The notes under the pieces are model-generated. The model was not told the DNA's origin. It saw nothing but the letters and a program-made list of their open reading frames with translations, and ran no database searches. From contig CALUIM010000008.1 of assembly GCA_944320725.1 (NCBI GenBank), positions 94,385 through 158,384 on the forward strand: a DNA stretch of 64,000 nucleotides. The letters are read 5' to 3'. The position numbers and the translations under genes are program-made. Shown here in pieces: positions 3,440 through 54,268 of the stretch (positions within the stretch are counted from its first letter, which is position 1; every line of letters starts with the position of its first letter). Origin of the DNA: an uncultured Coriobacteriaceae bacterium. GTDB taxonomy: Bacteria > Actinomycetota > Coriobacteriia > Coriobacteriales > Coriobacteriaceae.

Positions 3440-3456
3440 ATGCCCTCCTCTGCGCG

Positions 3457-3975: not shown

Positions 3976-4142
3976 AGCGTGCTCCTCTCTTCATTGCGCG
4001 GCGCCCATCGCAAGGCGACGGGCTCGCATGTAGCCACATGTGAATAGATACCCGTTCTTGGCACATGTTTGTTCTAGGAGTCGAACACGCTTCCCGCAGC
4101 TGTCATCGCCGCAGCGCTCGCATTTGAGCGCTCATGCAAGCG

Positions 4143-5213
4143 CTACGCACGAACGAGATGGATGCGGCGCGCATCGAAATGCATGCGCAGCACGTCGCCC
4201 TCGCGCGGCAGCTCGCGCTCGCCTGCACCCACGAGGTTGACCTTCCACTGCAGGCGGTTCGGCGAATCGGGGCGCGGCGGGTCGAGCAGCACAAGCCGCT
4301 CGAAGCGGGCATCGCTCACCCGCGCCACATGCAGATCATAGGTATTGCGTCCCGGTTCCGCACGGTTGTCGCGATGGAAATATGAGGCGCGCACGCCCAG
4401 ATACGCCACATCATCGGGCACCTCATAGCCCACATCGAACACCATGCCCCAATCGGTTGCCTCCACCTCGGTGGGAGACACCTTACGCGCGGGCGAGGTG
4501 TTCTTGCAGCCGGTGAGCCGCAGCGTCGAGAGCGTCTGGGGTGAACGCATGAGCTGAGCCGGCGCCCCATCTTCGACCACATGTCCTTCGTGCATCACCA
4601 CGATGCGTTCGCACAGTCGACATGCCTCGTCGATATCATGGCTCACGTAGAGCACCGTCGCATCGAGTACGTCGAACAAATCGAGTAGGTTTTGCTCAAG
4701 CGCGCTTTTCAAAAACGAATCGAGCGCCGAGAAGGGCTCGTCGAACATGTAGATACCGGGATGTGCGGCGATCATGCGCGCGAGCGCCACGCGCTGTTGC
4801 TGGCCGCCGGAAAGCCGTGCGGGATAGCGCTGCGCAAAGCGCTCCATCCCAAAGATGCCGAGATAGCGTTGCGCGCGCTGGGTGCGCGTCGCCCCATCGA
4901 GCGTGCGCGGCATGCCCGCACACACGTTTTCGAGTGCGGTGAGATGAGGGAACAGTTGGTAATTCTGGAACAGCAATGCGCATGTGCGCGCCTGCGGCGT
5001 GAGGTTGATGCCCCGGGCAGAATCGAAGAACGTGGTGCCGTTCACACGAATCACGCCCTCGTCCGGTGTTTCCACGCCGGCGATGCAGCGCAGCGTGCAG
5101 CTCTTGCCGCATCCCGAGGCCCCGAGCAGCGCCACGCGCTCCTCCCCCGCCTTAAGCTGCATGGCGAGCGTGAACCCCGGATACCGTTTGGTGATATCGA
5201 GCTCGAGCGACAT
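4143..5213 (-). CDS. modC: Molybdate/sulfate-type ABC transporter ATP-binding protein with a C-terminal TOBE-like domain
   Basis: Walker A GASGCGKS, signature LSGGQQQRV, Walker B IYMFDEP. Lies next to modB and modA. Confidence 0.85.
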   Translation of the reverse strand: MSLELDITKRYPGFTLAMQLKAGEERVALLGASGCGKSCTLRCIAGVETPDEGVIRVNGTTFFDSARGINLTPQARTCALLFQNYQLFPHLTALENVCAGMPRTLDGATRTQRAQRYLGIFGMERFAQRYPARLSGGQQQRVALARMIAAHPGIYMFDEPFSALDSFLKSALEQNLLDLFDVLDATVLYVSHDIDEACRLCERIVVMHEGHVVEDGAPAQLMRSPQTLSTLRLTGCKNTSPARKVSPTEVEATDWGMVFDVGYEVPDDVAYLGVRASYFHRDNRAEPGRNTYDLHVARVSDARFERLVLLDPPRPDSPNRLQWKVNLVGAGERELPREGDVLRMHFDARRIHLVRA

Positions 5214-12516: not shown

Positions 12517-12534
12517 GCCTTCGCGCTCGTTCAC

Positions 12535-12582
12535 CGTCCGGAACGCGCCGTTCGCCGTGTCTGTGCACGGCGCGCCCGGACG
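12535..12582 (+). terminator. GC-rich nested hairpin after adhE (no U-tract)
   Basis: Outer stem CGTCCGG/CCGGACG and inner stem GCGCCG/CGGCGC. Confidence 0.4.
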
Positions 12583-12590
12583 CCGTTAAG

Positions 12591-13391
12591 ATGGAGCAAA
12601 CCGACAGAAAGGACGGTAGCGCCATGATTCTTCCCGATTCCAAGGTCGAGCTCGCCCACCGCGGCAACAAGGTCGTCTATGATCTCGGCGATAAGATCGT
12701 CAAGGTCTTCAACGAGTCCAAGCCCGTCTCCGACATCTTCAACGAGGCGCTCAACCTCGCCCGCATCAACGAGGCCGGTATCCGCAGCCCCAAGGCGCTC
12801 GAGGTCGCACAGGTCGAGGACGCTGACTACGGCTGGGCGCTCGTCACGAGCAAGGTTCCGGGCGTGACCCTCGCCGAGAAGATGAACGCCGAGCCCCAGC
12901 GCTTCGGTGAGTACCTGGAGCAGTTCGTGGACTTCCAGATCGAGATCCACGGATTCACCTGCACCCAGCTCAACCGTCAGTACGACAAGTACCAGCGCAT
13001 GATCAACTCGATCGACCAGATCAACGCCACCACGCGTTACAACCTGCTCGAGCGCCTGAACGGCCTCAAGAGCAAGGGCTTTGTGTGCCACGGCGACTTC
13101 AATCCGTCGAACGTAATCGTTGGTGAAGACGGTCAGCTCTATGCCTGCGACTGGGCGCACGCCACCCAGGGCTCCCCTGCTTCCGATGTGGCCATGACCT
13201 ACTTGCTGTTCGCCCTGAACAGCAAGGAGCAGGCCGACCAGTACCTCGAGCTGTATTGCGAGCGCGCCGACATGCCCATCCAGCTGCCGCGTCAGTGGAT
13301 GCCCATCGTGGCCGCCTCCGAGCTTGCGCGCAACCGCAAGAGCGATGAGGACTTCCTCCTCTCCTGGATCGACGTCTTCGATTACCAGTAA
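12591..13391 (+). CDS. Phosphotransferase (APH/choline-kinase-like) family protein
   Basis: Brenner-type catalytic motif HGDFNPSNV followed by ACDW. Size about 260 aa. The start is uncertain; Met at 12624 is an alternative. Confidence 0.75.
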   Translation: MEQTDRKDGSAMILPDSKVELAHRGNKVVYDLGDKIVKVFNESKPVSDIFNEALNLARINEAGIRSPKALEVAQVEDADYGWALVTSKVPGVTLAEKMNAEPQRFGEYLEQFVDFQIEIHGFTCTQLNRQYDKYQRMINSIDQINATTRYNLLERLNGLKSKGFVCHGDFNPSNVIVGEDGQLYACDWAHATQGSPASDVAMTYLLFALNSKEQADQYLELYCERADMPIQLPRQWMPIVAASELARNRKSDEDFLLSWIDVFDYQ

Positions 13392-13438
13392 GGACTTTCA
13401 GTAGGTCCACACATGAAGAATCCTCTTCATGTTCTCAA

Positions 13439-13481
13439 GGGGTTTGGTGCTAAGAATGGGCGCCAAACCCCTTTCTTTTTT
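13439..13481 (+). terminator. Intrinsic terminator
   Basis: GGGGTTTGG ... CCAAACCCC followed by TTTCTTTTTT. A second perfect 9-bp hairpin, ACATGAAGA/TCTTCATGT, lies at 13411-13432. Confidence 0.75.
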
Positions 13482-13818
13482 AAGCCCTCTTCGAAATGTA
13501 CTAAGGGGCGTATTGCAACATCAGTATTTTCAGCAGTAGCGCCCTATAAAAATGATACTCCGCTTGTTTCATATGCGAAATGTGGATGTTTCTCAAGAAA
13601 CCAAAAGCGCGTCCGATATGCATGAGTTTCATATACTCATTAACCTGCTAATTTAATAGCTCTATGGAACTGAGATTCGCGCTTCTCTATGCGATTCGCG
13701 ATTGTTATCCACACATCGCATATGATACCAACGGCGTCGCATTTCTTTCCCGTGGAATTACGCTCATACAAAACTACAAGCGCTTGAATTCATACACGAA
13801 ATACCAGATACAAAGAAA

Positions 13819-14487
13819 TTACGAGAAAAGGTACGTCGCGATACATCCTTCATGGCAGGCAATCGTCGCGCATGACGCGCGAACAACGTTTGAGACACCC
13901 AAATCGGAGAGTGCATCACACCGGCGATGATCGAGCTCCCATTCCATGCCCTGCTCTGAGACAACCGTATCGGGAAGCAACGGAACAAACGAGAATCCGC
14001 TTCCCGCGGCATCGACGATATCCCACTGCTCACCCGCGCGCAGGATGCGTCCTGAAAAGCCGTCCTCTTCAAGCGCGACGGTAAAGGGAGCGCGCGCAAG
14101 CGTTCCTATAACGGCGAGAAAATGATCGGGTCTGCCGCCGGAAAAACAGGTGAAGGTTACCCGAGCGCCCGGCCACCGCGCATCGACGGCGCGCAGCGCA
14201 AGCGCAAGGTCAGTGAAGTCCTTATACGGGTCATACCGCTCAAGCTCGCAGATCCCCGCAGCTACAAGGCAATCCAGGTGCAACGTCGCCGCGCGCGACG
14301 CCGTATCGCAGTCGCCGCAGAACAGATGAGGGTCGACACCTGCAGCGATAAGCGTATCGAGACCACGATCCACCGCCACCACGACATCCGCGTCTGCTGC
14401 AAGACGCAAGACAAGCTCAGGCGAAGACGGTTCCGGAGACCCGCCCACCATCAGCACGCGCGGACGACGCATCGCTTCAGATGACAC
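13819..14487 (-). CDS. thiN: Thiamine pyrophosphokinase
   Basis: Motifs GDCDT, KDFTDL and GGRPDH typical of the TPK catalytic domain, plus a C-terminal thiamine-binding domain. Confidence 0.8.
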   Translation of the reverse strand: MSSEAMRRPRVLMVGGSPEPSSPELVLRLAADADVVVAVDRGLDTLIAAGVDPHLFCGDCDTASRAATLHLDCLVAAGICELERYDPYKDFTDLALALRAVDARWPGARVTFTCFSGGRPDHFLAVIGTLARAPFTVALEEDGFSGRILRAGEQWDIVDAAGSGFSFVPLLPDTVVSEQGMEWELDHRRCDALSDLGVSNVVRASCATIACHEGCIATYLFS

Positions 14488-15197: not shown

Positions 15198-15521
15198 GGG
15201 TATCCCTTCTCATACGCAAACGGTGCCGGCGCATCGCACAGCATGGCGCGGCAACCGAGCATCGCTGTTCAATCTCGACCATGCTACCACGCTCCACGTG
15301 CCGCACGCAGCGCATCTCGCATTTGGGCATACGTCTACCAAAAGATAGCTACCGTATCTCCGATACGCCTGAAAGAGTTATTCCGCTCAGTGGTATCCTC
15401 GACATGAGTTATGGCTCAGCAAACGCGCCGCGCATGTGCGTGGCGTGCCGCCGCCCGTGCACGAGGACGGCATACCTATCGGATGCGGCCACACGGTCGC
15501 CTGATCGATTGGAAGTGTAGC

Positions 15522-17789
15522 GTGGCTACGTCAACCAACGCGCCCAAGAAGGCAACGAGACGCACGAAGTCGGCAGCGAAGAAGACGGCGGAACCCTGCC
15601 TCATCATTACCGACGACGATCTGTATATGTTTGCCAACGGCACCTGGCAGCGCAGCTGGGAGAAGCTCGGCGCGCATAAGGACGTGCAAGACGGCGTCGA
15701 AGGCTGGCACTTCGCCGTATGGGCGCCCAAGGTGGCAAGCGTTCATGTGGTGGGCGACTTCAACGGTTGGGACGCCAACGCCAACGCGCTGTATCAAATC
15801 AAGCAAAGCGGCGTGTGGCAGGGCTTTGTCCCCGGCCTCGCTGAGGGCGACCTGTATAAGTACGTCATCGAGACCGACGACGGCAAGCTCCTCTACAAGG
15901 CGGACCCCTATGGGTTCTATGCTGAGAAGAACCCCGGCACCGCCTCGCGCCTCATGGATATCACCGGCTACAAGTGGACCGACGGTGTTTGGATGCGCAA
16001 GCGCGGACGCGCCGATCTCATGGCACAGCCCCTCAACATCTACGAGGTCCATCTGGGATCGTGGAAGCGCCACGGCGACGAGCCGCAGGGCGAGCCGCGC
16101 GAGGACGGCACCTATCCCGGCCCGGGCGATCCTTTCCCCGCGCAGCGCGGCGTCATGTACAGCTATGACGACCTCTCGACCGAGCTCGTGGACTATGTCA
16201 AGGACATGGGGTACTCCCATATCGAGATCATGCCCCTGATGGAGCATCCCTTCGACGGCTCCTGGGGCTACCAGCCCACCGGCTACTACGCCGCCACCTC
16301 GCGCTATGGCGAGCCCAAGCAGCTCATGCACTTCATTGAGTGCTGCCATAAGGCGAACATCGGCGTCATCCTCGACTGGGTCCCGGGCGGCTTCTGCGCC
16401 AACGACGAGGGCCTCGCCACCTTCAACGGCCACATGCTCTACGAGCGCGAAATCCATCCCAACTGGGGCACGCACAAGTTCGACTTCGGTCGCGGCGAGG
16501 TGCGCAGCTTCCTCGTCTCGAACGCGCTGTTCTGGATCGAGATGTTCCACGCCGACGGCATCCGCATGGATGGCGTCTCGAGCATGCTCTACCTGAACTT
16601 CGGCGTCGATGACCCCGGCCAGAAGAAGTTCAACAAGTACGGTACCGAAGAGGACCTCGATGCCTCCGCGTTCATTCGCCAGGTCAACTGCGCGGTGGGC
16701 CGCGAATTCCCCGACGTCATGATGATCGCCGAGGAATCCACCGCTTGGCCGCTCGTCACCTACCCGCCCGAGGATGGCGGTCTGGGCTTCCACTTCAAGT
16801 GGGACATGGGCTGGATGAACGACACCCTCCACTACATGCAGACCGACTTCCCGTGGCGTCCCGGCGCGCACCGGCTCCTCACGTTTTCGATGATGTACGC
16901 CTTTAACGAGAACTTCGTGCTGCCGCTCTCCCACGACGAGGTGGTAAACGGCAAGTGCTCGCTCATGGGCCGCATGCCTGGCGACCAGTGGCGTCAGTTC
17001 GCCGGCCTCCGCACGCTCATGATGTACCAGATGGCGCACTCCGGCGCGCAGCTCAACTTCATGGGCAACGAGATCGCACCCTTCATCGAGTGGCGCTACT
17101 ACGAGTCGCTCGAGTGGTTCCTGGCCGAGGACTTCGAGGATCATCGCCATCATCGTGACTTCGTGAAGGCCTTGAACCATCTCTACCTCGACCAGCCTGC
17201 CTTCTGGCAGAAGGCCTATACCGAGGATGGCTTCAAGTGGATCGACGCCGATAACAACCAGCAGTCAATCATCTCGTTCGCGCGCCACGGCAAGAAGGCG
17301 AGCGACGACCTTGCCATCCTCATCAACTTCGACCCCGCAAGCTATGAGACGTTCCGCATGGGCGTGCCGCGCGAGGGCGACTGGCAGGTCATCTTCGACT
17401 CCGACCGCCCCGAGTTCGGCGGCTCCGGCTACAAGCTCGACGAGCTCGACGGCGTGGTCTGCTCGAGCCAGCCCTACCCGTGGAACGGCTGCGACAACTC
17501 CATCCAGCTGCCGGTCCCCGGTCTTGCCGGCATCGTGCTCAAGCGCATCGGCAAGAGCTCCTACGTACCGCCCAAGCCTAAGAAGAAGCCTGCGGCGAAG
17601 CGCACCACGCGCAAGAAGACCACCTCGACCGCTGCTGCCAAAACTGCCAAGGCCAAGACCACCGCGGCCGCGGCCACAAAGGCGCCTGCTCAAAAAGCAG
17701 CTGCTACCCGCACCAAAGCTGTCTCCACGGCCAAGAAGACGGGAAAGGCCGCTCAGACGAAATCTACACAATCTGCCCCAGACGCGTAA
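15522..17789 (+). CDS. glgB: 1,4-alpha-glucan branching enzyme with a Lys/Ala/Thr-rich C-terminal tail
   Basis: GWHFAVWAP, VVGDFNGWD and GH13 regions (DWVPGGF, GIRMDGVSSM, IAEES). Start placed at GTG 15522 after GGAAG; the ATG at 15411 is an alternative start. Confidence 0.9.
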   Translation: MATSTNAPKKATRRTKSAAKKTAEPCLIITDDDLYMFANGTWQRSWEKLGAHKDVQDGVEGWHFAVWAPKVASVHVVGDFNGWDANANALYQIKQSGVWQGFVPGLAEGDLYKYVIETDDGKLLYKADPYGFYAEKNPGTASRLMDITGYKWTDGVWMRKRGRADLMAQPLNIYEVHLGSWKRHGDEPQGEPREDGTYPGPGDPFPAQRGVMYSYDDLSTELVDYVKDMGYSHIEIMPLMEHPFDGSWGYQPTGYYAATSRYGEPKQLMHFIECCHKANIGVILDWVPGGFCANDEGLATFNGHMLYEREIHPNWGTHKFDFGRGEVRSFLVSNALFWIEMFHADGIRMDGVSSMLYLNFGVDDPGQKKFNKYGTEEDLDASAFIRQVNCAVGREFPDVMMIAEESTAWPLVTYPPEDGGLGFHFKWDMGWMNDTLHYMQTDFPWRPGAHRLLTFSMMYAFNENFVLPLSHDEVVNGKCSLMGRMPGDQWRQFAGLRTLMMYQMAHSGAQLNFMGNEIAPFIEWRYYESLEWFLAEDFEDHRHHRDFVKALNHLYLDQPAFWQKAYTEDGFKWIDADNNQQSIISFARHGKKASDDLAILINFDPASYETFRMGVPREGDWQVIFDSDRPEFGGSGYKLDELDGVVCSSQPYPWNGCDNSIQLPVPGLAGIVLKRIGKSSYVPPKPKKKPAAKRTTRKKTTSTAAAKTAKAKTTAAAATKAPAQKAAATRTKAVSTAKKTGKAAQTKSTQSAPDA

Positions 17790-17846: not shown

Positions 17847-20273
17847 ATGAGACAGATCTTCCACGACAAATATGACTTCATCACCCAGTACCGGGCGATG
17901 GTTCGCGCCAACACCGGCAAGGAGTTCGAGGCCTGCGGCTCGCACGACCGCTTCTATGCCCTGGCCGAGCTCATTGCCACGCGTGCGCGCCGCATCGCGA
18001 GCGAGAACGAGCTCGAGTTCGAGCGCACGGGCAAAAAGCGCGTGTACTACTTCTCACTCGAGTTCCTCATCGGTCGCTTGCTCGACAACTACCTACTGAA
18101 CTTCGGTATCCGCGACATGGTCGAGGAAGCGCTCGAGGAGATGGGCACCACCCTCGAGGAGCTCGAGGTCCGCGAGCCCGACGCCGCGCTCGGCAACGGC
18201 GGCCTGGGCCGTCTGGCCGCGTGCTTCCTGGCTTCCGCCGCGCATGAGAACATTGCCTTCTACGGCAACGGCATGCGCTATGAGTACGGCCTCTTCAAGC
18301 AGGAGATCGTCAACGGCCGTCAGGTCGAGGTTGCCGATAACTGGCTCAAGCACGGCTATCCGTGGGAGTCGCGTCGCCCCGAGAGCGCGGTCGAGATTGT
18401 CTTCGGTGGCAAGAGCGTGGGCTACGAGAAGGACGGCCGCACCATGTACCGCACCGAGGGCGGCCAGAAGATCCTCGCGGTCCCCTATGACATTCCCGTG
18501 GTTGCCTACGGCGGCGGCCTCGTGAACAAGCTGCGCGTCTGGAAGGCCGAGCCCAACGAGGACCTCTTCGACCTCGACGCCTTCAACAGCGGTAACTATG
18601 CCGAGGCGAACGCCGGTCGTGCCGAGGCCGAAGCCATCTCGACCATCCTCTACCCCGCCGACGGCGGCGAGCATGGCAAGATCTTGCGCCTCAAGCAGGA
18701 GTACCTGTTCGTGGCAGCCGGCATCAACTCCATCCTCAACACGTTCCGCAACGAGCATGGCACCGAGTGGGAGAAACTGCCGCAGTACGTGGCCATTCAC
18801 ACCAACGACACCCATCCGGCCATGTGCGGCCCCGAGCTCATGCGCGTTCTCATGGACGAAGAGGGCCTGGAATGGGACGAGGCTTGGGAGATTGTCACCA
18901 AGACCGTCTCGTTCACCAACCACACCGTCCTGCCCGAGGCGCTCGAGAAGTGGCCCATCACCACGTTCAAGCCGCTCCTTCCCCGCCTCTACCAGATCAT
19001 CGAGGAGATCGCCCGCCGCTTCCGCGAGTCCTTCCCCACCGATAACCCCGAGTGGCGCGAGATGTTCCAGAAGACCGCTATCCTGTGGGACGGCGAGGTC
19101 CGCATGGCGAACCTCTCGATCGTGTGCAGCCACTCGGTGAACGGCGTGGCCGAGCTCCACACCAAGATCTTGAAAGAGCAGGTCTTCAAGGAGTTCTACG
19201 AGCTCACGCCTGCGAAGTTCAACAACAAGACCAACGGCGTGACGCATCGTCGCTTCCTCGCCGAGGCCAACCCCAGCTACGCCAAGCTCATCACCGACAC
19301 CATTGGCAAGGGCTGGCTTGACGACGCCTTCGAGCTCAAAAAGCTCGAGGCCCACGTGGACGACGAGAAGTTCCTGCGCGCCATGGCAGCCTCCAAGCGC
19401 GAGAACAAGGTGCGCCTGGCCAAGTACATCGAAGAGGTCTCCGGCGTCACCGTCGACCCCGATTCGGTCTTCGACGTGCAGGTGAAGCGCTTCCACGCCT
19501 ACAAGCGCCAGCTGCTCAACATCTTCAAGGTGATGGACGTCTACAACCGCCTCACCTCCGATTCCACCTTCACCGTGCGCCCGACCACCTTCATCTTCTC
19601 GGGCAAGGCGGCGCAGAGCTACTACTTCGCCAAGGAGGTCATCCGCCTCATCAACTCGGTGGCCGACGTGGTGAACAACGACAAGCGCGTGAACGACCTT
19701 ATCAAGGTTGCGTTCATCCCCAACTTCCGCGTCTCGAACGCCCAGCTCATCTACTCCGCCGCCGAGATCTCCGAACAGATCTCCACGGCCGGCCAGGAGG
19801 CCTCGGGCACGTCGAACATGAAGCTCATGATGAACGGCGCGATCACGCTCGGCACGCTCGACGGCGCTAACATCGAGATCGCCGACCTCGCCGGGCGCGA
19901 CAACGTCAAGATCTTCGGTCTCACCGAGCCCGAGGTCGTTGCCCTGCAGCAGAGCGGCCACTACTTCTCGTGGGATGAGTACAACGCCGACCGCGACCGC
20001 TTGGGCCGCTGCGTCGACGAGCTCACCGACACCACGTTCTCCGGCCTCTCCGGCACGTTCGACTCCATCCGTCGCGAGCTCATGGACAACAACGACCACG
20101 ACCTCGTCCTCAAGGATTTCCACTCCTATGTGAAGGCGTGGGAGGAGCTGGTCGAGAGCTACGACGACACGCTCGCCTGGAACCGCATGGCGCTGTACAA
20201 CACGGCCAACTCGGGACACTTCTCGAGCGACCGCACCATTCGCGAGTATCGCGACGAGATCTGGGGAGCGTGA
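17847..20273 (+). CDS. glgP: Glycogen/maltodextrin phosphorylase
   Basis: PLP-site motif EASGTSNMKLMMNGA. 808 aa. SD sequence AAAGGA. Confidence 0.95.
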   Translation: MRQIFHDKYDFITQYRAMVRANTGKEFEACGSHDRFYALAELIATRARRIASENELEFERTGKKRVYYFSLEFLIGRLLDNYLLNFGIRDMVEEALEEMGTTLEELEVREPDAALGNGGLGRLAACFLASAAHENIAFYGNGMRYEYGLFKQEIVNGRQVEVADNWLKHGYPWESRRPESAVEIVFGGKSVGYEKDGRTMYRTEGGQKILAVPYDIPVVAYGGGLVNKLRVWKAEPNEDLFDLDAFNSGNYAEANAGRAEAEAISTILYPADGGEHGKILRLKQEYLFVAAGINSILNTFRNEHGTEWEKLPQYVAIHTNDTHPAMCGPELMRVLMDEEGLEWDEAWEIVTKTVSFTNHTVLPEALEKWPITTFKPLLPRLYQIIEEIARRFRESFPTDNPEWREMFQKTAILWDGEVRMANLSIVCSHSVNGVAELHTKILKEQVFKEFYELTPAKFNNKTNGVTHRRFLAEANPSYAKLITDTIGKGWLDDAFELKKLEAHVDDEKFLRAMAASKRENKVRLAKYIEEVSGVTVDPDSVFDVQVKRFHAYKRQLLNIFKVMDVYNRLTSDSTFTVRPTTFIFSGKAAQSYYFAKEVIRLINSVADVVNNDKRVNDLIKVAFIPNFRVSNAQLIYSAAEISEQISTAGQEASGTSNMKLMMNGAITLGTLDGANIEIADLAGRDNVKIFGLTEPEVVALQQSGHYFSWDEYNADRDRLGRCVDELTDTTFSGLSGTFDSIRRELMDNNDHDLVLKDFHSYVKAWEELVESYDDTLAWNRMALYNTANSGHFSSDRTIREYRDEIWGA

Positions 20274-20385: not shown

Positions 20386-21531
20386 ATGAGTAAGAAAGAA
20401 TGCATCGCAATGCTCCTCGCCGGAGGACAAGGCAGCAGGCTGGGGGCGCTCACATCGAAGATCGCCAAGCCGGCCGTCTCCTTTGGCGGGAAGTACAGAA
20501 TCATCGACTTCACGCTGTCGAACTGCGCGAATTCGGGTATCGACACAGTGGGCGTGCTCACGCAGTATCGCCCCTACCGTCTCCATGCCTACCTTGGTTC
20601 CGGCGCTGCTTGGGACCTCGATGAGCTGGGCGGCGGCGTGTCGATCCTGCCTCCGTATGCTACGCAGGACGGTGGCGCGTGGTACGCCGGTACGGCCGAT
20701 GCCGTGACCCAGAACCTCGACTACATCAAGTCGCATGACCCCAAGTACGTGCTCATTCTTTCCGGCGACGCCCTCTATCGCATGGACTATCGCGCCATGC
20801 TCGCCACGCACGTCGATAACAACGCCGACCTGACCGTCGCGGTCATGCCCGTGCCGTGGGAGGACGCAAGCCGCTTTGGCATCCTCACGGCCGACGAGGA
20901 CAAGCGCATCCAGAAGTTCACCGAGAAGCCTGAGAAGCCCGATTCGAATCTCGCGTCCATGGGCATCTACATCTTCACCGCCGACTTCCTCATCAAGACG
21001 CTCGAGGAGGACGCGCTCGACCAGCGCTCCAGCCACGACTTTGGCGGCGACATCATCCCCAAGGCCCTCGCCGACGGCAAGCGCCTGTTCGTGCATGAGT
21101 ACAACGGCTTTTGGAAAGACGTGGGCACCATCGCGAGCTACCACGAGACCTCGATGGACCTCTTGGGCGCCGACCCGCTGTTCGACCTCTATGACAACGA
21201 GACGCCCATCATGTCCAACGACACGACGCGTCCTCCGCACTACATTGGCCCCGACGGCCGCGTCGACGACTGCCTGGTCTCCAACGGCTGCAAGATCATG
21301 GGCACCGCACGCCACTCCATCCTCTCCACCGATGCGGTGGTCGAGGAGCGCGCCATCGTCGAGGACTCGGTCCTGCTGCCCGGCGCCGTCGTGAAGAGCG
21401 GTGCGCACGTGAGCCGCGCCATCCTGGGCGAGAACTCCATCGTCGAGGAGGGCGTCAAGCTCGGAAGCGTCGATATCACGAAGGACACCGCCGTCGTTGG
21501 AAACGACGTCGTCATCGGGAAGGGGGAATGA
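20386..21531 (+). CDS. glgC: Glucose-1-phosphate adenylyltransferase, catalytic subunit
   Basis: [13 protein letters not shown] and [15 protein letters not shown] motifs. SD sequence AAGGAG. Confidence 0.95.
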
Positions 21532-21535
21532 ACCG

Positions 21536-22642
21536 ATGATCAACCGCAAGGCCATCGGCTACATCACTGCTAACTATTCCGGCAGCACCCCGAGCAAGCT
21601 GCTCGAGGATCGTCCGCTCGCATCCGTGCCGTTCATCGGACGCTATCGTCTCATCGATTTCCCGCTGTCCAACATGACCAACGCCGGCATCAAGACCGTC
21701 GGTCTCGTTATGCCGGGCAACTATCGTTCGATCATCGACCATGTGGGCCATGGCAAGGACTGGATGCTCGACCGCAAGAAGGGTGGCCTGTTCCTGCTGC
21801 CGGGTAACCCCTACGGCACCACGAAGCGCGGCATGCGCTTCCTGCTGCGCGACATCATCTCCAACAAGTCGCTCTTCCAGCGCTCCGACAAGCCCTATGT
21901 GGTGATGATGGGCTCCAACATCATCTTCAACATGGATCTCAACGCCATCATCGATGCCCATGAGGCGTCCGGCGCCGGCATCACGATGATCTATGTGAAG
22001 GCTGAGCGCGCGCACAACGACATCAACGCGCTCAACATCGGCGATCGTGGCCGCGTCCAGTCCATCAAGGTGGGCTGCGAGTACGGGGATAACAAGTTCC
22101 TCGATTGCTTCATCATCAACCGCGAGCTGCTCCTCGAGATCATCGAGAGCTACAAGAGCGCCGACTACCTCGACCTGTTCGAGGCCATCGCAGGCGACTT
22201 CGACCGCATCGATGTGTGCAGCTACGAGTTCAAGGGCCTCGCCGTGGGCATCTTCAACGAGGAGACCTACTATCACCGCAGCATGGAGATGCTCGATCCT
22301 GCCACGAACGACCAGCTCTTCATGAAGGATCGCCCCATCCGCACCAAGGCCCACGATGCGCCTCCGGCGAAGTATTCCTCGGGCAGCAACGCCACCAACT
22401 CCCTCATCTCGGCCGGTTGCCAGATCGAGGGCACGGTGCGCGGCTCGATCCTGTCCCGTGGCGTCACCGTCGCCAGCGGCGCGAGCGTCACGAACAGCAT
22501 CGTCATGCAGGGTGTGAAGATTGAGACCGGTGCGCGCGTTGAGAACGCCATCGTCGATAAGAACAACATCATCCCCGCCAACACCGAGCTTCGTGGAACG
22601 CCCGATTCGATCTTGGTCATCGGTAAGGCACCCATCGAGTAA
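21536..22642 (+). CDS. glgD: Glucose-1-phosphate adenylyltransferase, regulatory GlgD-type subunit
   Basis: Paralog of GlgC (GRYRLIDFPLSNMTNAGI) that lacks the GGxGxRL loop. ATG 21536 lies 4 nt after the glgC stop and is preceded by GGGAAGGGGGAA. Confidence 0.85.
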   Translation: MINRKAIGYITANYSGSTPSKLLEDRPLASVPFIGRYRLIDFPLSNMTNAGIKTVGLVMPGNYRSIIDHVGHGKDWMLDRKKGGLFLLPGNPYGTTKRGMRFLLRDIISNKSLFQRSDKPYVVMMGSNIIFNMDLNAIIDAHEASGAGITMIYVKAERAHNDINALNIGDRGRVQSIKVGCEYGDNKFLDCFIINRELLLEIIESYKSADYLDLFEAIAGDFDRIDVCSYEFKGLAVGIFNEETYYHRSMEMLDPATNDQLFMKDRPIRTKAHDAPPAKYSSGSNATNSLISAGCQIEGTVRGSILSRGVTVASGASVTNSIVMQGVKIETGARVENAIVDKNNIIPANTELRGTPDSILVIGKAPIE

Positions 22643-22768
22643 AATCTCGGTAAAAGATTGCGGCGTCTCACCCATCATGTGGCGGTGAATCGCTCATACT
22701 TGGATGAATCGCCGTCCGTTCACGCGGGCGGCGATTCTCGAACATCTAGCGTTCAGGGAGAGATGTAC

Positions 22769-24919
22769 ATGTCAAAGAAACTGCAGATTGCGTTCGCCTC
22801 GGCAGAGGCGGCGCCCTTCGTAAAGACCGGTGGCCTCGGCGACGTTGCGGGTGAGCTGCCCCGCGCACTTAAGAAGGCGGGTGCCGACGTGGTGGTGCTC
22901 GTGCCGAAGTACTCCACCATCCCGTCTGAGTACAAAGACCAGATGGAGCACGTGGGCGAGTTCTACGTAAGCCTGGGTTGGCGCAACGAGTACTGCGGCC
23001 TCGAGCGTCTCATGGTCGACGGTGTGCCGTACTACTTCCTCGATAACGAGCATTACTTCGATCGCAGCTATCCTTATGGCTTCTTCGACGACGGCGAGCG
23101 CTTCGCGTTCTTCTCCAAAGCTGTTACCGAGTGCCTCCAGTACCTGCCCGGCGACTTCCAATGCGACGTTCTGCATTGCAACGACTGGCACACCGCCATG
23201 GCGCCCGTGTTTTTGCGCGAGTTCTACCAGGGTCTGCCGCTCTATGAGCGCGTGAAGACGGTCTTCACCATCCACAACATCGCGTTCCAGGGCCAGTTCT
23301 CCGATAAGATGCTCAACGATGTGCTGGGTCTCGCCCACATTCCCGCCGCTGCCGGCCAGCTGCGCTGCGATGCGAGCTCCATCAACTTCATGCAGGGTGC
23401 CCTGCGCTACACCGATGCCATCACCACGGTGAGCCCCACCTACGCACGCGAGATCAAGTCGTCCGATTATGGCGAGGGCCTCGACTGGGTGCTGCGCCAG
23501 CGCTCCGATGTCCTGTCGGGCATCCTGAACGGCTGCGACCCCGCACTCAACGATCCCGAGACCGATACCAAGATCGCCGCGAACTACGGCGTGGGCAACA
23601 TGGCCGGTAAGGCCGCGTGCAAGCGCGCACTGCAGGAGGAGCTCGGCCTCGAGGTCCGCGACGACCGTCCGCTCATGGTTATGGTCACGCGCCTCACCCG
23701 CCAGAAGGGTCTCGACCTGGTGACCTACTCGCTCGATCGCATCCTCTCCGGTGGCGTGCAGGTAGCTGTTCTCGGTACCGGCGACCGCGCCTATGAGGAC
23801 GCCATGCACTACTTCGCGAACAAGTACCCCGGCACCATGGCGGCTCGCATCACCTTCGATTCCGCGCTGTCCCGCCGCATGTACGCCGGCGCCGACATGT
23901 TCCTCATGCCGTCGCTCTTCGAGCCCTGCGGCCTCTCACAGATTATCGCGATGCGCTACGGCACGCTTCCCATCGTGCGCGAGACCGGCGGTCTGCGCGA
24001 TACCGTGATCCCCTACAACTACGTCACCGGTGAGGGCACCGGCTTCTCGTTCGCTAACTTCAACGGCGACGAGATGGGCGATGCCGTCTTCCGTGGCGCC
24101 CGTCTGTTCTGGGACGATCACGAGGCGTGGAACAAGCTCGTCGAGCAGGCCATGAAGGCCGATTTCAGCTGGACGCGCTCCGCAGGCGAGTACATCGACC
24201 TTTACCTGCGCCTCCATCCCGACACCGAGGTCCAGCCCGAGCCGGAGCCCGCTCCCGAGCCGAAGGCCGAGCCCGAGGTGAAGCCCGAGGCCAAGCCGGA
24301 GCCGAAGGCTGAACCCGTTGCCAAGGCAGAGCCGAAGCCGGAGCCCAAGCCCGAGCCGAAGGCCGAGCCCAAGCCAGAGCCCAAGCCCGCTGAGAAGCCG
24401 GCTGAGGCACCGAAGGCTGCTGCCAAACCCGCAGCCAAGAAGGCTCCTGCCAAGAAGGCTGCGCCCACGAAGGCTACCGCCGCCAAGACGCCTGCTGCGA
24501 AAGCCACTGCCACGAAGGCTGCAGCCACCAAGACCGCTGCCGCCAAGACCACCGCGGCAAAGCCGGCTGCAACCAAGACGGCTACGAAGCCCACGGCGAA
24601 GCCGGCAACCGCTAAGGCGGCCGCGCCTAAGGCAACCGCTAAGGCGGCCGCGCCTAAGGCAACTGCGCCTAAGGCTGCGGCAACGAAGACCGCCGCGACC
24701 AAGACCGCGGCAAAGAAGCCTGCAGCAAAGACCGCGACCGCCGCGAAGCCGGCAGCTAAGACCGCTGCCAAGAGCACGGCAAAGGCTGCTGCCACTACAA
24801 CGGCGACCACCACGGCGGCCAAGGCAAAGGCGGCCGCAAAGCCTGCCACCAAGGCGGCTTCGGCTAAGCCTGCCACCAAGGCAACGCGCAAGCCGTCTTC
24901 ACGCAAGAGCAACGCCTAA
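22769..24919 (+). CDS. glgA: Glycogen synthase (GT5) with a roughly 235-aa low-complexity C-terminal tail
   Basis: [17 protein letters not shown] and [11 protein letters not shown] motifs. Start at MSKKLQ after GGGAGAG. The tail begins near nt 24214. Confidence 0.9.
24607..24660 (+). repeat. Perfect 27-bp tandem duplication inside the glgA tail
   Basis: AACCGCTAAGGCGGCCGCGCCTAAGGC occurs twice (24607-24633 and 24634-24660), followed by a partial third copy. It encodes TAKAAAPKA twice. Confidence 0.9.
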
Positions 24920-24954
24920 GGCACGCCTCGTACAACTCGCACGCATGAGCGTTT

Positions 24955-24984
24955 CGGGGTCTGGGAAACCGGACCCCGTTTTTT
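24955..24984 (+). terminator. Intrinsic terminator after glgA
   Basis: CGGGGTC ... GACCCCG followed by TTTTTT. Confidence 0.8.
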
Positions 24985-25117
24985 GCGTACACCGCGCCAG
25001 GAACGCTACGCGCAAATCGCCGCAGGTTTCTCCCCCGGTACGCTTTGCGATACTCGACAGTTTCCTTATACTTGTTGATTGCTGTCGAGACACATCGTCA
25101 TCATAGAGGGAACGACT

Positions 25118-28100
25118 ATGAGATTGATTCATAACAGCAGGCGGTCCTGCTTCCGCGCGCCGTACGGCGCCGTCGAGACGGGCACCACCGTCACGCTCTC
25201 CGTGCGCGTGGAGGATGCGCCGGCCGCGTGCACGCTCACGCTGCGCACGTGGGTCGACGAAGAGGGCGAGCGCCTGCATGAGATGCACCCGGGAGCTGAT
25301 GGCCTGTTCAGCGCTACGATAGACTGCGTACGTCCCGCCATCATTTGGTACAGCTTCCATGCAAGCTGGGAGGAGACCGTTGACGGCGAGACCGTGTGTC
25401 GCGCGCTTCACCTTGGTGCCCCCGAGGGCCATACCGGCGGCGAAGGCGTCATGTACGATTACGCCGACGTCCCATCATTTCAGATCACCGTCTACGAGCA
25501 CCGCGCAACGCGTCCCTCGTGGTATGAGAACGGCATGGTCTACCAGATCTTCCCCGATCGCTACCGCCGCGACGCCGCATGGCGCGAGCGCGCCGAGCGC
25601 GTGGTAGCCGAGCCGCGCGCCGGCATTGGCAAGCGTATCGTTGAAGACTGGAACGAGCCTCCCGTATACGACCGCGCGGAGGACATGTCGATCAAAACCT
25701 GGGACTTCTACGGCGGCTCGCTCAAGGGTATCACCGGTGACCTCGACCGACTCGCCGAGCTCGGCATCACCGCCATCTACCTCAATCCCATCTTCGAAGC
25801 TGCGAGCAACCACCGCTACGACACGGGCGATTACCTGAAGATCGACCCCATGCTCGGTACCGAGGACGATTTCCGCGAGCTCTGCCGCGAAGCCGAGCGG
25901 CGCGGGATCTCCATCATCCTCGACGGCGTGTTCAACCACACCGGCGACGACTCGCTCTACTTCAACCGCTACGGCAACTACCCCGGCGAGGGCGCGTGGG
26001 AGCATCCCGATTCGCCGTGGCGCGATGCGTTCCGGTTCCATGAGGATGGCACCTACGACTGCTGGTGGGGCATCACCAACATGCCCGCCCTAAACTCGGA
26101 GTCGCCGCGTGTGCGCGAGCTCTTGCTGGGCGAGGACGGCGTCATCCGTCATTGGACGCGCGCCGGCGCCCGCGGCTGGCGCCTCGATGTGGCCGACGAG
26201 CTTACCGACGACCTCATCGAGCAGATCAAGACGACGCTCATGGACGAGCGCCCCGATGGTCTCTTACTGGGCGAGGTCTGGGAGGACGCGTCGAACAAGA
26301 TCAGCTATAGCAAGCTTCGTCGCTATTTGCTGGGCAGCGAGCTCGACTCGGCGATGAACTACCCGTTCCGCGACATGGTCATCGGTTTTCTCATGGGCAC
26401 GATGTCGGCCGCCGATGCCGCCGAGGTCATCGAGTCGCTCAGCGAAAACTATCCGCCCGAAGCCCTCGCCTGCTGCCTCAACCTGCTAGGAAGCCACGAC
26501 CGGCCCCGCATCGCGTCGCTGCTTGGCGGCGGCCCCGACGAGTCGAAGCTCCCCGAGGAAGAGCGCGGGCGGTGGCGTCTCTCGCCCGAGGCCATGGGCC
26601 TTGCGAAGGGCCGCTTCTGGCTTGCCAGCCTCATGCAGATGACATTCCCGGGCGTGCCTTCCATCTACTACGGCGACGAGTACTGCTTGGAGGGTCTCTC
26701 CGATCCTGGCAACCGCCGCACCCTGCCGCTTGAGGAGGATATCCGCGACCGCGATATGCTCACCATCGTGAAGAATGCCGCCGCGGTGCGCCGTGCGCTC
26801 CCCTTCATGGTCAACGGCACCATCCAGGCGCAGGCGCTTAGCGAGCACGTGCTTGCCTACACGCGGCGCGGTGAGGACGGCGAGGCCGCAACGGTCATCA
26901 TCAACCGCAGCAACACCGAGGGTGCCTGCGTGCGCATCCCCTGCCTTAGCGAGGCGGCCACCGACATCGTCTCGGGCAACGAACTCCCGGTGCGAGACGA
27001 CGGCACCGTTGAGGTGCAGCTCTGGCCCTTCGGCTCGGCGGTCATCTACTTCCATGCGCACGACCGCCTGCAAAAGCCGCTAGAGCGCGGCGCGGGCGTC
27101 GTGTGCCACATCACCTCGGTTCCCAACGGCGACAAGCCGGGCACCTTGGGCAAACCCTCCAAGCGCTTCATCGACCACCTCGCTGCCATGGGCATGCGCT
27201 ACTGGCAGGTCCTTCCGGTGAACCCCACCGATATGTACGGCTCGCCCTACTCGGGTCCGTCTGCCTTCGCGGGTAACATCGCGCTCTTGCCACAATCCGA
27301 GGAGGAGCTGCGCGCCGCCTATGCGGCATGGGTTGCCGAGGGTGGCCCCGCGCAAGACGACGGCTACCGCATCTTCGTGCGCGAGCAGCGCGACTGGCTT
27401 GAGCCCTACTGCGCCTTCATGGCGATCAAGAAGCTCGAAGACGGCGTCTCGCGCCACGAATGGCCCGAGGAGTTCGCCAGCTATCGCCGCGAGCTGCTCC
27501 GCGATCCCCGCCTCGCCAAGGAGGCGGCCGCCCAGGCGTACCTGCAGTATCGCTTCGAGCTTGCCTGGCAAGATGTCGCGGCTTACGCCAACTACCGCAA
27601 CATCTCGATCATCGGCGACATTCCCATGTACGTCTCCGATGACTCCTCCGATGCGTGGAGCTCGCCTGAGCTCTTCAACCTCGACCGCGATGGCCGACCC
27701 ACCGAAATCGCCGGTGCGCCGCCCGATGGCTTCGCGCCCGAGGGCCAGGTCTGGGGCAATCCCACGTTCCGTTGGGACCGCATGCGCGAGACTGGGTACG
27801 CGTGGTGGCTGGGACGCCTCCGCCGTGTGTGCTCCCTCTACGACCGCGTGCGCCTCGATCACTTCCTGGGCTTCCACAACTACTTCAGCATTCCGGCGGG
27901 CCACCCCGGATCCGACGGTCGCTGGCTTCCCGGCCCGGGCAAGGAGCTCTTCGAGGCGGCGTATCGCGAGATGGGTCCGCTCCCCTTCATCGCCGAGGAT
28001 CTGGGCGTACTCACCCCCGGCGTGCGCACCCTGCTCGCCTCCTGCGGCTTCCCCGGTATGGATGTGCTCGAGTTCTCGGACTACGACGTGCGCTGCGGCC

Positions 28101-28423
28101 TGCATCCCCATGAGGGCAAGATCTTCTACACCTCTACGCACGATACCTCCACGCTGGCCGGTTTCTGCGAGCGCTCGTTTGTGGAGCCCGGTGATGTGCG
28201 TGGTGCGCGCGAGCTTGCTGCAAAGCTGGTACGCGATGCACTCGAGAGCCCTGCCGAGCTCGTCATGATGCCGCTGCAGGACATCTTGGGCCTCAACGAC
28301 GATGCGCGCATGAACGTACCGGGCGTGGCCGAGGGCAACTGGGCATGGCAGGCCCGCGAGGAAAACATCGTTGCCGCGGAGGCTTCAGTCGCCGCGCTCA
28401 TGCACGAAACCCATCGCGCCTGA
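25118..28423 (+). CDS. malQ: Fusion protein: GH13 alpha-amylase/neopullulanase-like domain plus GH77 4-alpha-glucanotransferase
   Basis: N-terminal half has GH13 regions DGVFNHT, GWRLDVADE, EVWED and LLGSHD. C-terminal half has GH77 motifs GDIPMYV, VRLDHFLGF, IAEDLG and YTSTHD. Start ATG 25118 after AGAGGGA. Confidence 0.85.
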   Translation: MRLIHNSRRSCFRAPYGAVETGTTVTLSVRVEDAPAACTLTLRTWVDEEGERLHEMHPGADGLFSATIDCVRPAIIWYSFHASWEETVDGETVCRALHLGAPEGHTGGEGVMYDYADVPSFQITVYEHRATRPSWYENGMVYQIFPDRYRRDAAWRERAERVVAEPRAGIGKRIVEDWNEPPVYDRAEDMSIKTWDFYGGSLKGITGDLDRLAELGITAIYLNPIFEAASNHRYDTGDYLKIDPMLGTEDDFRELCREAERRGISIILDGVFNHTGDDSLYFNRYGNYPGEGAWEHPDSPWRDAFRFHEDGTYDCWWGITNMPALNSESPRVRELLLGEDGVIRHWTRAGARGWRLDVADELTDDLIEQIKTTLMDERPDGLLLGEVWEDASNKISYSKLRRYLLGSELDSAMNYPFRDMVIGFLMGTMSAADAAEVIESLSENYPPEALACCLNLLGSHDRPRIASLLGGGPDESKLPEEERGRWRLSPEAMGLAKGRFWLASLMQMTFPGVPSIYYGDEYCLEGLSDPGNRRTLPLEEDIRDRDMLTIVKNAAAVRRALPFMVNGTIQAQALSEHVLAYTRRGEDGEAATVIINRSNTEGACVRIPCLSEAATDIVSGNELPVRDDGTVEVQLWPFGSAVIYFHAHDRLQKPLERGAGVVCHITSVPNGDKPGTLGKPSKRFIDHLAAMGMRYWQVLPVNPTDMYGSPYSGPSAFAGNIALLPQSEEELRAAYAAWVAEGGPAQDDGYRIFVREQRDWLEPYCAFMAIKKLEDGVSRHEWPEEFASYRRELLRDPRLAKEAAAQAYLQYRFELAWQDVAAYANYRNISIIGDIPMYVSDDSSDAWSSPELFNLDRDGRPTEIAGAPPDGFAPEGQVWGNPTFRWDRMRETGYAWWLGRLRRVCSLYDRVRLDHFLGFHNYFSIPAGHPGSDGRWLPGPGKELFEAAYREMGPLPFIAEDLGVLTPGVRTLLASCGFPGMDVLEFSDYDVRCGLHPHEGKIFYTSTHDTSTLAGFCERSFVEPGDVRGARELAAKLVRDALESPAELVMMPLQDILGLNDDARMNVPGVAEGNWAWQAREENIVAAEASVAALMHETHRA

Positions 28424-54191: not shown

Positions 54192-54268
54192 GGCCCGTTC
54201 GTCTAGCGGTTCAGGACGCCGCCCTCTCAAGGCGGAGATCACCAGTTCGAATCTGGTACGGGCTACCA
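54192..54268 (+). tRNA. tRNA-Glu (anticodon CTC), copy 1
   Basis: Acceptor GGCCCGT/ACGGGCT, anticodon stem CCGCC/GGCGG with loop CTCTCAA, T-arm AGTTCGAATCT, encoded CCA. Confidence 0.9.

Follow-up and report, generated by a model that had tools for sequence, protein, structure and literature searches.

The DNA analysed here is a stretch of 64,000 nucleotides (nt) from an uncultured Coriobacteriaceae bacterium (contig CALUIM010000008.1, positions 94,385 to 158,384 of the forward strand), referred to below as the window, and the element of interest is the C-terminal tail of the glycogen synthase GlgA that it encodes. The glgA gene lies on the forward strand at 22769..24919 and encodes 716 amino acids (aa) followed by a TAA stop codon (24917-24919). 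The longest open reading frame (ORF) spanning the gene, 22658..24919 on the same strand, opens with a TTG at 22658; the true start is most likely the ATG at 22769 (MSKKLQIAF...), because the Shine-Dalgarno-like sequence AGGGAGAG stands 7 nt before it and the homologues compared begin at the same MSKK position. The gene belongs to a glycogen cluster with the order glgB-glgP-glgC-glgD-glgA-amy/malQ, which is found in the window as well as in the related loci L001, L003 and L007. The coordinates of the features of the cluster are collected in Table 1.

Pfam analysis of the GlgA protein detected Glyco_transf_5 (PF08323, E=9.6e-83, profile positions 1-239 of 239) and Glycos_transf_1 (PF00534, E=2.4e-12), both within aa 7-440. 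The solved glycogen synthases of Escherichia coli (2QZS/3D1J) and Agrobacterium tumefaciens (1RZU), which are 477-485 aa in length, align end to end with residues 6-483 (E=1e-87), and the catalytic domain of the starch synthase SS4 (6GNE) aligns with residues 4-482. The motifs KTGGLGDV and PSLFEPCGL are intact, and the segments that hold the KTGGL motif (aa 17-26) and the FEPCGL motif (aa 381-391) are invariant in an alignment of 23 sequences. Fold, motifs and genomic context all agree with membership in the bacterial ADP-glucose GlgA enzymes of CAZy glycosyltransferase family 5 (GT5). Judged by these features, the protein is a bona fide GT5 ADP-glucose glycogen synthase, the catalytic part of which is complete by codon 485, the D of ...LRLHPD (nt 24221-24223). 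For residues 486-716, no match was obtained in the PDB search.

Beyond codon 485 the protein continues in frame for 231 residues (nt 24224-24916), which fall into two parts of very different composition. Part 1 is a block of 61 aa (P20 E16 K11 A9 V3) with a net charge of -5, in which PEPK occurs 5 times and EPKP 4 times. Part 2 is a polycation of 170 aa (A75 K38 T33 P16 S5 R2 N1) with zero Asp or Glu and a net charge of +40; successive Lys or Arg residues stand 4 or 5 positions apart in 30 of the 39 intervals, and the motifs KPAA (4 times), AAKP (4), KTAA (4), KAAA (7), PAKKA (1) and AKKA (2) recur in it. Apart from 3 Val, the whole tail is without hydrophobic or aromatic residues, and it has no Gly. 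We consider that it is probably intrinsically disordered. An earlier note on this DNA had described a complete GT5 domain followed in frame by a two-part low-complexity tail, and Pfam, PDB alignment and composition agree with that description: its P/E/K/A segment of about 60 residues, its A/K/T/P segment of about 170 residues without an acidic residue and all three peptide strings that it quoted are present in the translation. Its exact figures have to be corrected, since the tail is not about 235 residues long from 24214 but 231 residues from 24224, position 24214 belonging to the Leu codon of LHPD.

A tail of this kind might result from a sequencing or assembly error that fused glgA to low-complexity DNA, or the antisense ORF 24202..24912 might be the real product. 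Such GC-rich low-complexity DNA does leave this antisense ORF and the forward-strand ORF 24318..25106 open, and short-read contigs do break inside the tail repeat. However, independent metagenome runs from chicken gut yield contigs that span 24118-24633, 23915-24306, 24634-24995 and 24631-25050 with 0 differences and 0 gaps, the junction included; the runs that share the window sequence are mostly chicken-gut metagenomes, and the independent short-read (Logan) contigs end or begin only at the perfect 27-nt repeat at 24604-24663. The closest database relative, P0001, was assembled separately (L004) and carries this tail too, minus an in-frame deletion of 45 nt. Because the independent contigs and the L004 assembly share the junction, a false fusion through a sequencing error, which the earlier note had named as an example of what would refute it, is excluded. 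In addition, the same fusion is found in hundreds of homologues, from isolates and metagenome-assembled genomes (MAGs) alike, a terminator stands 3' of the glgA stop codon, and the antisense product is a hydrophobic A/G/V/F/L mirror image of the Ala/Lys/Thr coding strand. The 120 homologues described below all keep the A/K/T/P frame though other frames are also open, and we therefore rejected the antisense ORF and the alternative-frame ORF 24318..25106 as compositional shadows of a GCN/AAG/ACN/CCN coding strand. The chance of an artefact is in our judgement negligible, and the comparisons indicate that the tail is real, in frame and translated to its end.

The 120 best homologues of the window GlgA are all 660-823 aa in length, and the named ones among them belong to Collinsella or Enorma, which places the window in the Coriobacteriaceae. 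A tail is present in 120 of these 120 Coriobacteriaceae proteins; it is 173-337 aa long (median about 270), has the acidic-then-basic order and consists of Ala (fraction about 0.35), Lys (0.15-0.22), Thr (0.10-0.22) and Pro (0.08-0.17) to a large part. In 119 of the tails, with lengths of 173-334 aa, basic residues number 39-60 and the net charge is +13 to +41; on average 83% of the Asp and Glu residues lie in the first half, and the residues ILMFWYC together account for 0.3%. The number of basic residues stays at 39-60 while the length of the tail nearly doubles, and a basic C-terminal motif, SVSAA[RK]K[RT]T.KR, is common to most of the lineages. The sequences themselves are barely alignable. 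The spacer of the relatives is A/P/E/V-rich and not of PEPK type, the length of GlgA varies from 760 to 775 aa within Enorma massiliensis, and in a relative with 70% GC (L008) Pro and Glu have given way to Asp, Ala, Thr and Ser and part of the Lys to Arg, with the acidic block followed by the basic block being kept. It appears from these tails that selection acts on the charge architecture rather than on the sequence.

GlgA is not the only enzyme of the cluster with such an appendage. A six-frame scan of the 64-kb window found two K/A/T/P-rich segments only, the GlgA tail and the C-terminal tail of the branching enzyme GlgB, and among the 43 putative genes of the window these two are the only long low-complexity segments. 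The basic C-terminal tail of GlgB is conserved in L001, L003 and L007. The statement in the earlier note that GlgB has a similar tail holds for the basic part but not for the PEPK part, the GlgB tail being basic only; GlgB has a short basic N-terminal extension as well, which is absent in Fannyhessea vaginae. The start of glgB is uncertain, with ATG 15411, ATG 15483 and GTG 15522 as candidates. The longest ORF adds an Arg/Ala-rich leader (MAQQTRRACAWRAAARARG...) that is not seen in relatives; a start at ATG 15483 or GTG 15522 would yield the short basic N-terminal extension seen in L001 and L003. GlgP, GlgC, GlgD and the Amy-MalQ protein carry no tail. Since only GlgA and GlgB carry it in the window, the tail can be regarded as a property of the glycogen-building machinery, as had been proposed, although of these two enzymes only.

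Table 1. Features of the glycogen cluster in the window, with the evidence for each.
Feature	Position	Strand	Evidence and remarks
glgB, branching enzyme (CBM48, GH13, Alpha-amylase_C)	15411..17789	+	Pfam
GlgB short N-terminal basic A/K/T/P extension before conserved ...LIITDDD	15522..15596	+	L001/L003 comparison
GlgB C-terminal basic K/T/A/R tail, ~72-78 aa, no acidic spacer	17565..17786	+	six-frame scan
glgP, no tail	17847..20273	+	Pfam
glgC, no tail	20386..21531	+	Pfam
glgD, no tail	about 21536..22642	+	Pfam
Shine-Dalgarno-like AGGGAGAG	22754..22761	+	read directly; 7 nt 5' of ATG 22769
glgA coding sequence	22769..24919	+	ORF list, homologue starts, Shine-Dalgarno
GlgA catalytic domain, aa 1-485, GT5 N-lobe and GT1 C-lobe	22769..24223	+	Pfam, PDB alignment
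GlgA tail part 1, 61-aa Pro/Glu/Lys/Ala block with PEPK/EPKP repeats	24224..24406	+	composition, repeat scan
GlgA tail part 2, 170-aa Ala/Lys/Thr/Pro polycation	24407..24916	+	composition, conserved basic terminal motif in homologues
Perfect 27-nt direct repeat, 2.2 copies (TAKAAAPKA x2)	24604..24663	+	tandem-repeat scan, contig comparison
Strong intrinsic terminator with T-run, 10-bp stem with 8 GC pairs, loop of 4, TTTTTTGCGT	24955..24988	+	36 nt 3' of glgA stop
GH13 alpha-amylase / GH77 4-alpha-glucanotransferase (MalQ) fusion, no tail	25118..28423 (ORF from 25079)	+	Pfam

For a wider survey of GlgA, the catalytic domain alone was searched exhaustively against the representatives of clusters formed at 50% identity. 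The next-nearest clusters are those of Atopobiaceae, including F. vaginae, which are 59-60% identical to the window protein, 498-502 aa in length and tail-less, stopping 3-9 residues past the fold. Together with the solved structures, this outgroup bears out the view that such a tail does not belong to the standard make-up of GlgA. In F. vaginae (L007) the operon order is identical to that of the window; its GlgA is a protein of 502 aa (L007:10001-11509), and its GlgB (L007:2976-5162) ends in about 70 basic K/G/S/T/A residues encoded in a region of 45% GC. Since the basic tail of GlgB occurs here at 45% GC and beside a tail-less GlgA, it is probable that GlgB acquired its tail before GlgA did and that high GC alone does not account for basic tails on these enzymes; the GlgA tail would be an innovation of the Coriobacteriaceae.

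The list of cluster representatives also contained two tailed GlgA proteins that are unrelated. One of them, P0138, is encoded in an operon of the order glgB-glgC-glgD-glgA-glgP, the neighbouring proteins of which are named Oscillibacter or Dysosmobacter (Bacillota). Scanning one-genome-per-species contigs with P0138 gave 80 loci of Oscillibacter, Dysosmobacter and other Oscillospiraceae (L009-L088), with GlgA at about 3001-4900 of each. All of the complete GlgA ORFs (74/74) are tailed; the proteins are 551-693 aa and the tails 70-212 aa in length, and they are composed of an acidic block of the (EEPAPVV)n type and then a Lys-rich block ending in ...KKKGTAGKKKSAE. The catalytic domains are 47% identical to that of the window GlgA. 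GlgB of these bacteria likewise runs past its fold (...AFGAVFLRGEG) into a basic tail, which varies from about 20 aa (KPRKKKQAKELEKT) to 70-100 aa of K/A/V/T and has a conserved end, ...KKQAKEL(E/K)(K/E)T (glgB 3' end, within the first about 450-700 nt of L009-L088). The exact GlgA sequence of the P0138 contig (L005) is recorded on 1 contig, the exact GlgP, GlgB and GlgC sequences of that contig on 366, 427 and 579, which makes the tail either hypervariable from strain to strain or a place where assemblies regularly break.

A third, small clade is represented by P0142 (L006:208-2079) and P0373, whose K/A/P/E repeat tails (KAPAKEKAPAAKK...) have a net charge of +22 to +23 and whose GlgA is 47% identical to both the window and the Oscillospiraceae proteins; short tails are also present in P0444 and P0457 of this clade. 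The named relatives, Zongyangia, Anaerotruncus and Angelakisella, have a tail-less GlgA of 470-478 aa. The tails on all 120 Coriobacteriaceae and all 74 Oscillospiraceae proteins, and those of the third clade, extend well beyond the single organism to which the earlier note had ascribed them. These comparisons indicate that a charged disordered tail on glucan-building enzymes arose at least three times, and the independent origins are the strongest argument that the tail does something.

The charges of these tails bear on what that might be. The Oscillospiraceae tails have a median net charge of -4 (range -28 to +16), and their acidic count follows tail length (rho 0.88) but not the basic count (rho 0.04); for the Coriobacteriaceae the correlation of acidic with basic count is rho 0.33. 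An acidic count that tracks length and not the basic count is in keeping with a spacer of variable length joined to a constant anchor. One alternative is electrostatic self-assembly, in which the acidic block of GlgA would pair in trans with the basic blocks of the GlgA and GlgB tails and no DNA would be needed, so that synthase and branching enzyme would be concentrated on or around glycogen as a condensate, or small particles would be glued into larger rosettes. The segregation into an acidic first and a basic second block in every Coriobacteriaceae and Oscillospiraceae tail would fit such pairing, as would the rough charge balance of the Oscillospiraceae tails and a GlgB tail that is basic only and could dock on the acidic block of GlgA. 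However, the weak correlation in one family and its absence in the other mean that charge stoichiometry is not maintained; with -5 in part 1 and +40 in part 2, self-neutralisation is impossible in the window protein; and F. vaginae keeps the basic tail of GlgB without any GlgA tail, so that the basic tail needs no acidic partner on GlgA. We thus regard self-assembly as unlikely. Charge balance, in the form of autoinhibition or a stoichiometric coacervate, was demoted to a rival explanation on account of the weak or absent acidic-basic correlation.

The DNA that encodes the tail raises the question of a neutral origin. It is an imperfect tandem array with periods that are all multiples of 3, in part 1 those of 12, 18, 24, 30 and 42 nt, and its perfect 27-nt repeat evidently marks a recent in-frame duplication. 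In the tail codons (nt 24224-24916), GCT and GCA make up 27% and 21% compared with 9% and 7% in the neighbouring genes, and CCT 22% compared with 8%; the use of Ala and Pro codons is more even, which may limit perfect DNA repeats or tRNA depletion, and the choice of Lys, Glu and Thr codons is the same as in the neighbouring genes. Rfam and tRNA scans of the window detected no RNA family in or near the tail. Between the window and P0001, the tail shows 11 synonymous and 7 non-synonymous codon changes (18/216 codons changed), and the catalytic domain 5 synonymous and 1 non-synonymous (6/485). A tandem array with a fresh duplication, insertion and deletion polymorphism between near-identical strains and within E. 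massiliensis, and a rate of change above that of the catalytic domain are what one would expect of a neutral expansion, that is, replication slippage at a GC-rich gene end that is tolerated as a useless appendix. Against this, the tail is retained without exception in the 120 and 74 proteins across two phyla and is never frameshifted into an equally open R/P/S/L frame; the order of its blocks is conserved, as are its positive charge and its terminal motif; and the basic tails sit on exactly the two polymer-building enzymes and occur at 45% GC in the GlgB of F. vaginae. A neutral origin of the tail as a whole is therefore very improbable.

The tails that the GlgA tail resembles most are known from proteins of other storage granules. 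In AlgP of Pseudomonas aeruginosa, the C-terminal domain is composed of 154 aa of KPAA/KPVA/KTAAA repeats, and the protein has a net charge of +55, that of PhaF being +35 (PMC9239181). The C-terminal domains of both bind DNA, and AlgP is enriched on polyphosphate (polyP) granules (PMC9239181). By non-specific DNA binding, PhaM, PhaF and AlgP space granules of polyhydroxybutyrate (PHB) or polyP along the nucleoid (PMC9239181, PMC13052382); their loss makes the granules fewer, larger or clumped, and PhaM in addition forms a complex with the PHB synthase PhaC and activates it (PMC13052382). The tethers formed by PhaF and PhaM between granule and nucleoid control the number, dispersion and inheritance of the granules (PMC13052382). 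Like AlgP, the GlgA tail is a cationic, probably disordered domain with one Lys per 4-5 residues and a repeat number that varies between strains, and with 170 aa, 40 Lys and Arg, 0 Asp and Glu and the same Lys periodicity, part 2 has the make-up of an AlgP/PhaF-type KPAA domain. The likeness is one of composition, charge density and periodicity. AlgP, for which an association with storage granules and DNA is established, is in contrast a stand-alone non-enzyme that has a helical N-terminal domain and acts on polyP, and its repeats are far more regular and lack an acidic or Pro-rich spacer.

With PhaF of Pseudomonas putida and PhaM of Cupriavidus necator the tailed enzymes share the combination of a storage-polymer end and a Lys/Ala/Pro-type basic tail in one polypeptide. 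The catalytic domain of GlgA binds glucan, and the module that binds polymer or synthase and the basic module are joined in one chain in GlgA as well as in GlgB, where CBM48 is present. GlgA has also been co-crystallised with oligosaccharides (cited in PMC4836754). PhaF and PhaM are, however, separate phasin-type proteins of a hydrophobic polyester, whereas here the tail is fused to GlgA and GlgB themselves and the polymer is the hydrophilic glycogen. Pfam detected no phasin-type or PHB-binding N-terminal domain in GlgA, the N-terminal part of which is GT5; GlgA is thus not a member of the PhaM/PhaF family but only a possible functional analogue. By analogy, AlgP, PhaF and PhaM, rather than HupB or HBHA, would be the closest functional counterparts of the GlgA tail.

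HupB/Hlp, the lysine repeats of TopA, the PAKKA repeats of Ku, and HBHA are all actinobacterial basic low-complexity C-terminal tails, like that of GlgA. Lysine-rich tails of this group strengthen DNA binding or processivity (PMC5714199, PMC3553676), and the lysine-rich repeat region of HBHA binds phosphoinositides and is needed for the formation of lipid inclusions (PMC6176652). Their carriers differ from GlgA in being DNA enzymes, nucleoid proteins or a surface adhesin, GlgA being a cytoplasmic sugar-polymerising enzyme for which contact with DNA has no obvious purpose, and the Thr richness of its tail (33/170) and the preceding PEPK block are untypical of them. A secreted or surface-adhesin function of the HBHA kind was rejected, because the KTGGL motif begins at residue 19 and leaves no space for a signal peptide at the N-terminus.

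Sequences in which Pro alternates with Glu or Lys form extended polyproline-II-like rods and act as spacers. Part 1 shares this alternation with the (Glu-Pro)n/(Lys-Pro)n region of TonB and with the trypanosome EP procyclin, which are periplasmic or surface proteins, part 1 being cytoplasmic. When the tails alone were searched with Pfam at E<=10, only sub-threshold compositional matches (HC2, Extensin, PARP, TonB_N) were obtained: Trypan_PARP (PF05887) scored about 17-18.5 bits on part 1 (E=0.002-0.004) with a gathering threshold of 100, and TonB_N (PF16031) scored 7.4 bits, on the GlgB tail only, with a threshold of 33. The plant and algal starch synthases SS3 and SS4 are also GT5 glucan synthases with an extra non-catalytic region, which is thought to govern the site and number of granule initiation and not catalysis. 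Their extension is, however, N-terminal, folded (coiled coils, CBM53) and acts through protein partners, whereas that of GlgA is C-terminal, polycationic and probably disordered.

On this basis we tentatively propose, by analogy and as a plausible explanation that falls short of an even chance, that the tail combines a spacer of variable length with an anchor that binds polyanions non-specifically, and that it tethers nascent glycogen and organises the granules. The Pro/Glu-rich part 1 would serve as the extended spacer, and part 2, with its charge of about +40 and a Lys at every fourth or fifth residue, as the anchor, the partner of which would most likely be nucleoid DNA, with RNA, polyP or anionic membrane lipid as alternatives. 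As GlgA and GlgB stay bound to the growing glucan, their tails would tie the nascent glycogen particles to the nucleoid. Such a tether may set the start sites of granules, keep the granules dispersed rather than coalescing at the poles, and share them between the daughter cells; it would amount to a granule tether of the PhaM/PhaF/AlgP type that is built into the polymer-making enzymes themselves. The sequences themselves show the existence, reading frame, conservation, charge architecture and independent origins of the tail, and that no enzyme of the window or of the loci compared carries it besides GlgA and GlgB; disorder, the binding of a polyanion and any effect on granule organisation are inferred from them. 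The GlgA of E. coli is tail-less; there, GlgA-GFP and glycogen gather at the old cell pole, an effect ascribed by the authors to exclusion by the nucleoid, and glycogen in excess pushes the chromosome aside and can shorten the replicative lifespan (PMC4836754).

The placement of the basic block differs between lineages: it is on GlgB alone in F. vaginae, on GlgA and GlgB in Coriobacteriaceae, and long on GlgA and variable on GlgB in Oscillospiraceae. This suggests a property of the glycogen particle and not a regulation of catalysis. The change of carrier between GlgA and GlgB would also suit passive colloid stabilisers, or entropic bristles, with the tails forming a brush on glycogen particles or enzymes without a specific partner, and so would the extreme non-hydrophobic composition, the variable length and the fast sequence change under conserved bulk properties. 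A bristle, however, needs neither the acidic-then-basic order nor the narrow range of 39-60 positive charges nor the basic terminal motif, and a segment of +40 could hardly remain unbound in a cytoplasm filled with nucleic acid. We give this explanation a slim chance.

An anchor of the same kind with a partner other than DNA, namely polyP granules, RNA or ribosomes, or the membrane with its anionic inner surface, would lead to co-positioned carbon and phosphate stores or to glycogen synthesis close to the membrane. The enrichment of AlgP, with its similar tail, on polyP granules (PMC9239181) and the binding of phosphoinositides by the HBHA repeats, which contribute to lipid storage inclusions (PMC6176652), point in this direction, as does a Ppx-GppA gene near the F. 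vaginae operon. On the other hand, no specific link of the cluster to polyP or membrane functions was found in the window or the related loci, and the tail has no amphipathic or hydrophobic element, with 3 Val in 231 aa. Moreover, DNA and RNA are by far the most abundant polyanions of the cytoplasm. A partner of this kind seems rather improbable to us.

Several points weigh against an anchor on the nucleoid. A tail of +40 would bind DNA, RNA, polyP and acidic lipids alike, so that DNA is named as the partner by a judgement from analogy. The near-neutral Oscillospiraceae tails agree less well than those of Collinsella with an anchor that is purely polycationic, and the statistics of tail charge and length are descriptive, with no phylogenetic correction. 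The specificity for GlgA and GlgB is judged from the 64-kb window and the syntenic loci. An AlphaFold2 model from the 23-sequence alignment was poor throughout (mean predicted local distance difference test score, pLDDT, 45; predicted template modelling score 0.39), and since the whole model is poor, the coil predicted for the tail (pLDDT 32-44) is weak support for disorder. A search with part 2 (170 aa) against 5.8 billion proteins gave no match at E<=0.001, itself included, because the composition correction of HMMER removes the signal. The tail had also been called histone-H1-like. The histone H1-like nucleoprotein HC2 does share with it the K/A/P/T composition, disorder, the pentamer/tetramer Lys periodicity and repeat-number polymorphism (PMC2848022), and precomputed Pfam annotation lists HC2 on some GlgA homologues. 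In our own Pfam search, however, HC2 (PF07382) scored 9.1 bits on the whole tail and 11.4 bits on part 2 (E=0.34-1.8), far below the gathering threshold of 40; no linker-histone Pfam match or globular domain was found, and SPKK and TPKK occur 0 times each. The likeness in composition and charge spacing stands; as judged from these searches it is compositional and not demonstrable homology.

The remaining features of the window are given here for completeness. The GH13-GH77 fusion, a single protein of 1,100 aa, is syntenic directly 3' of glgA in L001, L003, L007 and L008, and is conserved at this place in Collinsella, Enorma and Fannyhessea. The pair glgC/glgD (20386-22642), which codes for two proteins of the NTP_transferase plus hexapeptide kind, is an arrangement typical of Bacillota, yet it occurs here in a genome of the actinobacterial class Coriobacteriia. 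After the Atopobiaceae, the next-best relatives of the GlgA catalytic domain are also clostridial (Geosporobacter, Clostridia MAGs). Elsewhere, patches of lower GC are found at 12001-14000 (0.565) and 60001-62000 (0.529), compared with about 0.64 for the window, and an ORF of 266 aa (12591-13391) lies in the first of them. The ORF of 881 aa at 9871-12516, by eye a candidate bifunctional aldehyde/alcohol dehydrogenase AdhE, has the highest GC content at third codon positions in the window (0.92), suggesting very high expression. The tRNA genes are Pro(TGG)-Gly(TCC) at 659-812 and Glu(CTC)-Gln(CTG)-Glu(CTC) at 54192-54617, and the Rfam scan of the window detected no family besides tRNAs.

In themselves, basic K/A/P tails are well known; what is new is that they are fused, in a conserved and convergent manner, to a glycogen synthase and a branching enzyme, on the synthase as a diblock of acidic spacer and basic anchor. 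Within the library searched, our full-text literature search gave no report of GlgA or GlgB with tails of this kind, the accessible part of a 2024 review of prokaryotic alpha-glucan enzymes makes no mention of disordered tails, and a 2025 review of bacterial organelle positioning, which describes positioning systems for carboxysomes, magnetosomes, PHB granules and polyP granules, does not mention glycogen (PMC13052382). In databases the tailed homologues are named plainly glycogen synthase GlgA or starch synthase, and automatic annotation gives no hint of the extra third of the GlgA protein. Such tails are prone to mis-assembly in short-read MAGs and are likely to be truncated or collapsed in many of them, and tryptic proteomics will largely miss them because trypsin shreds the tail.

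It is possible, though on balance doubtful, that glycogen in some abundant gut anaerobes (Collinsella/Enorma and Oscillibacter/Dysosmobacter) is actively organised by a tether to the nucleoid or another polyanion that is built into the enzymes, as acidic spacer and histone-like polycation on GlgA and as basic tail on GlgB, and evolved convergently in Actinomycetota and Bacillota. If true, this would be the first described system for the positioning and inheritance of bacterial glycogen, and the first tether that forms part of the polymerase itself. The tail offers a concrete approach to the question of how the number of glycogen particles, their placement and their inheritance are controlled in bacteria. 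Its carriers are widespread commensals in the gut of humans and livestock, a habitat in which stored glycogen is believed to be important for persistence.

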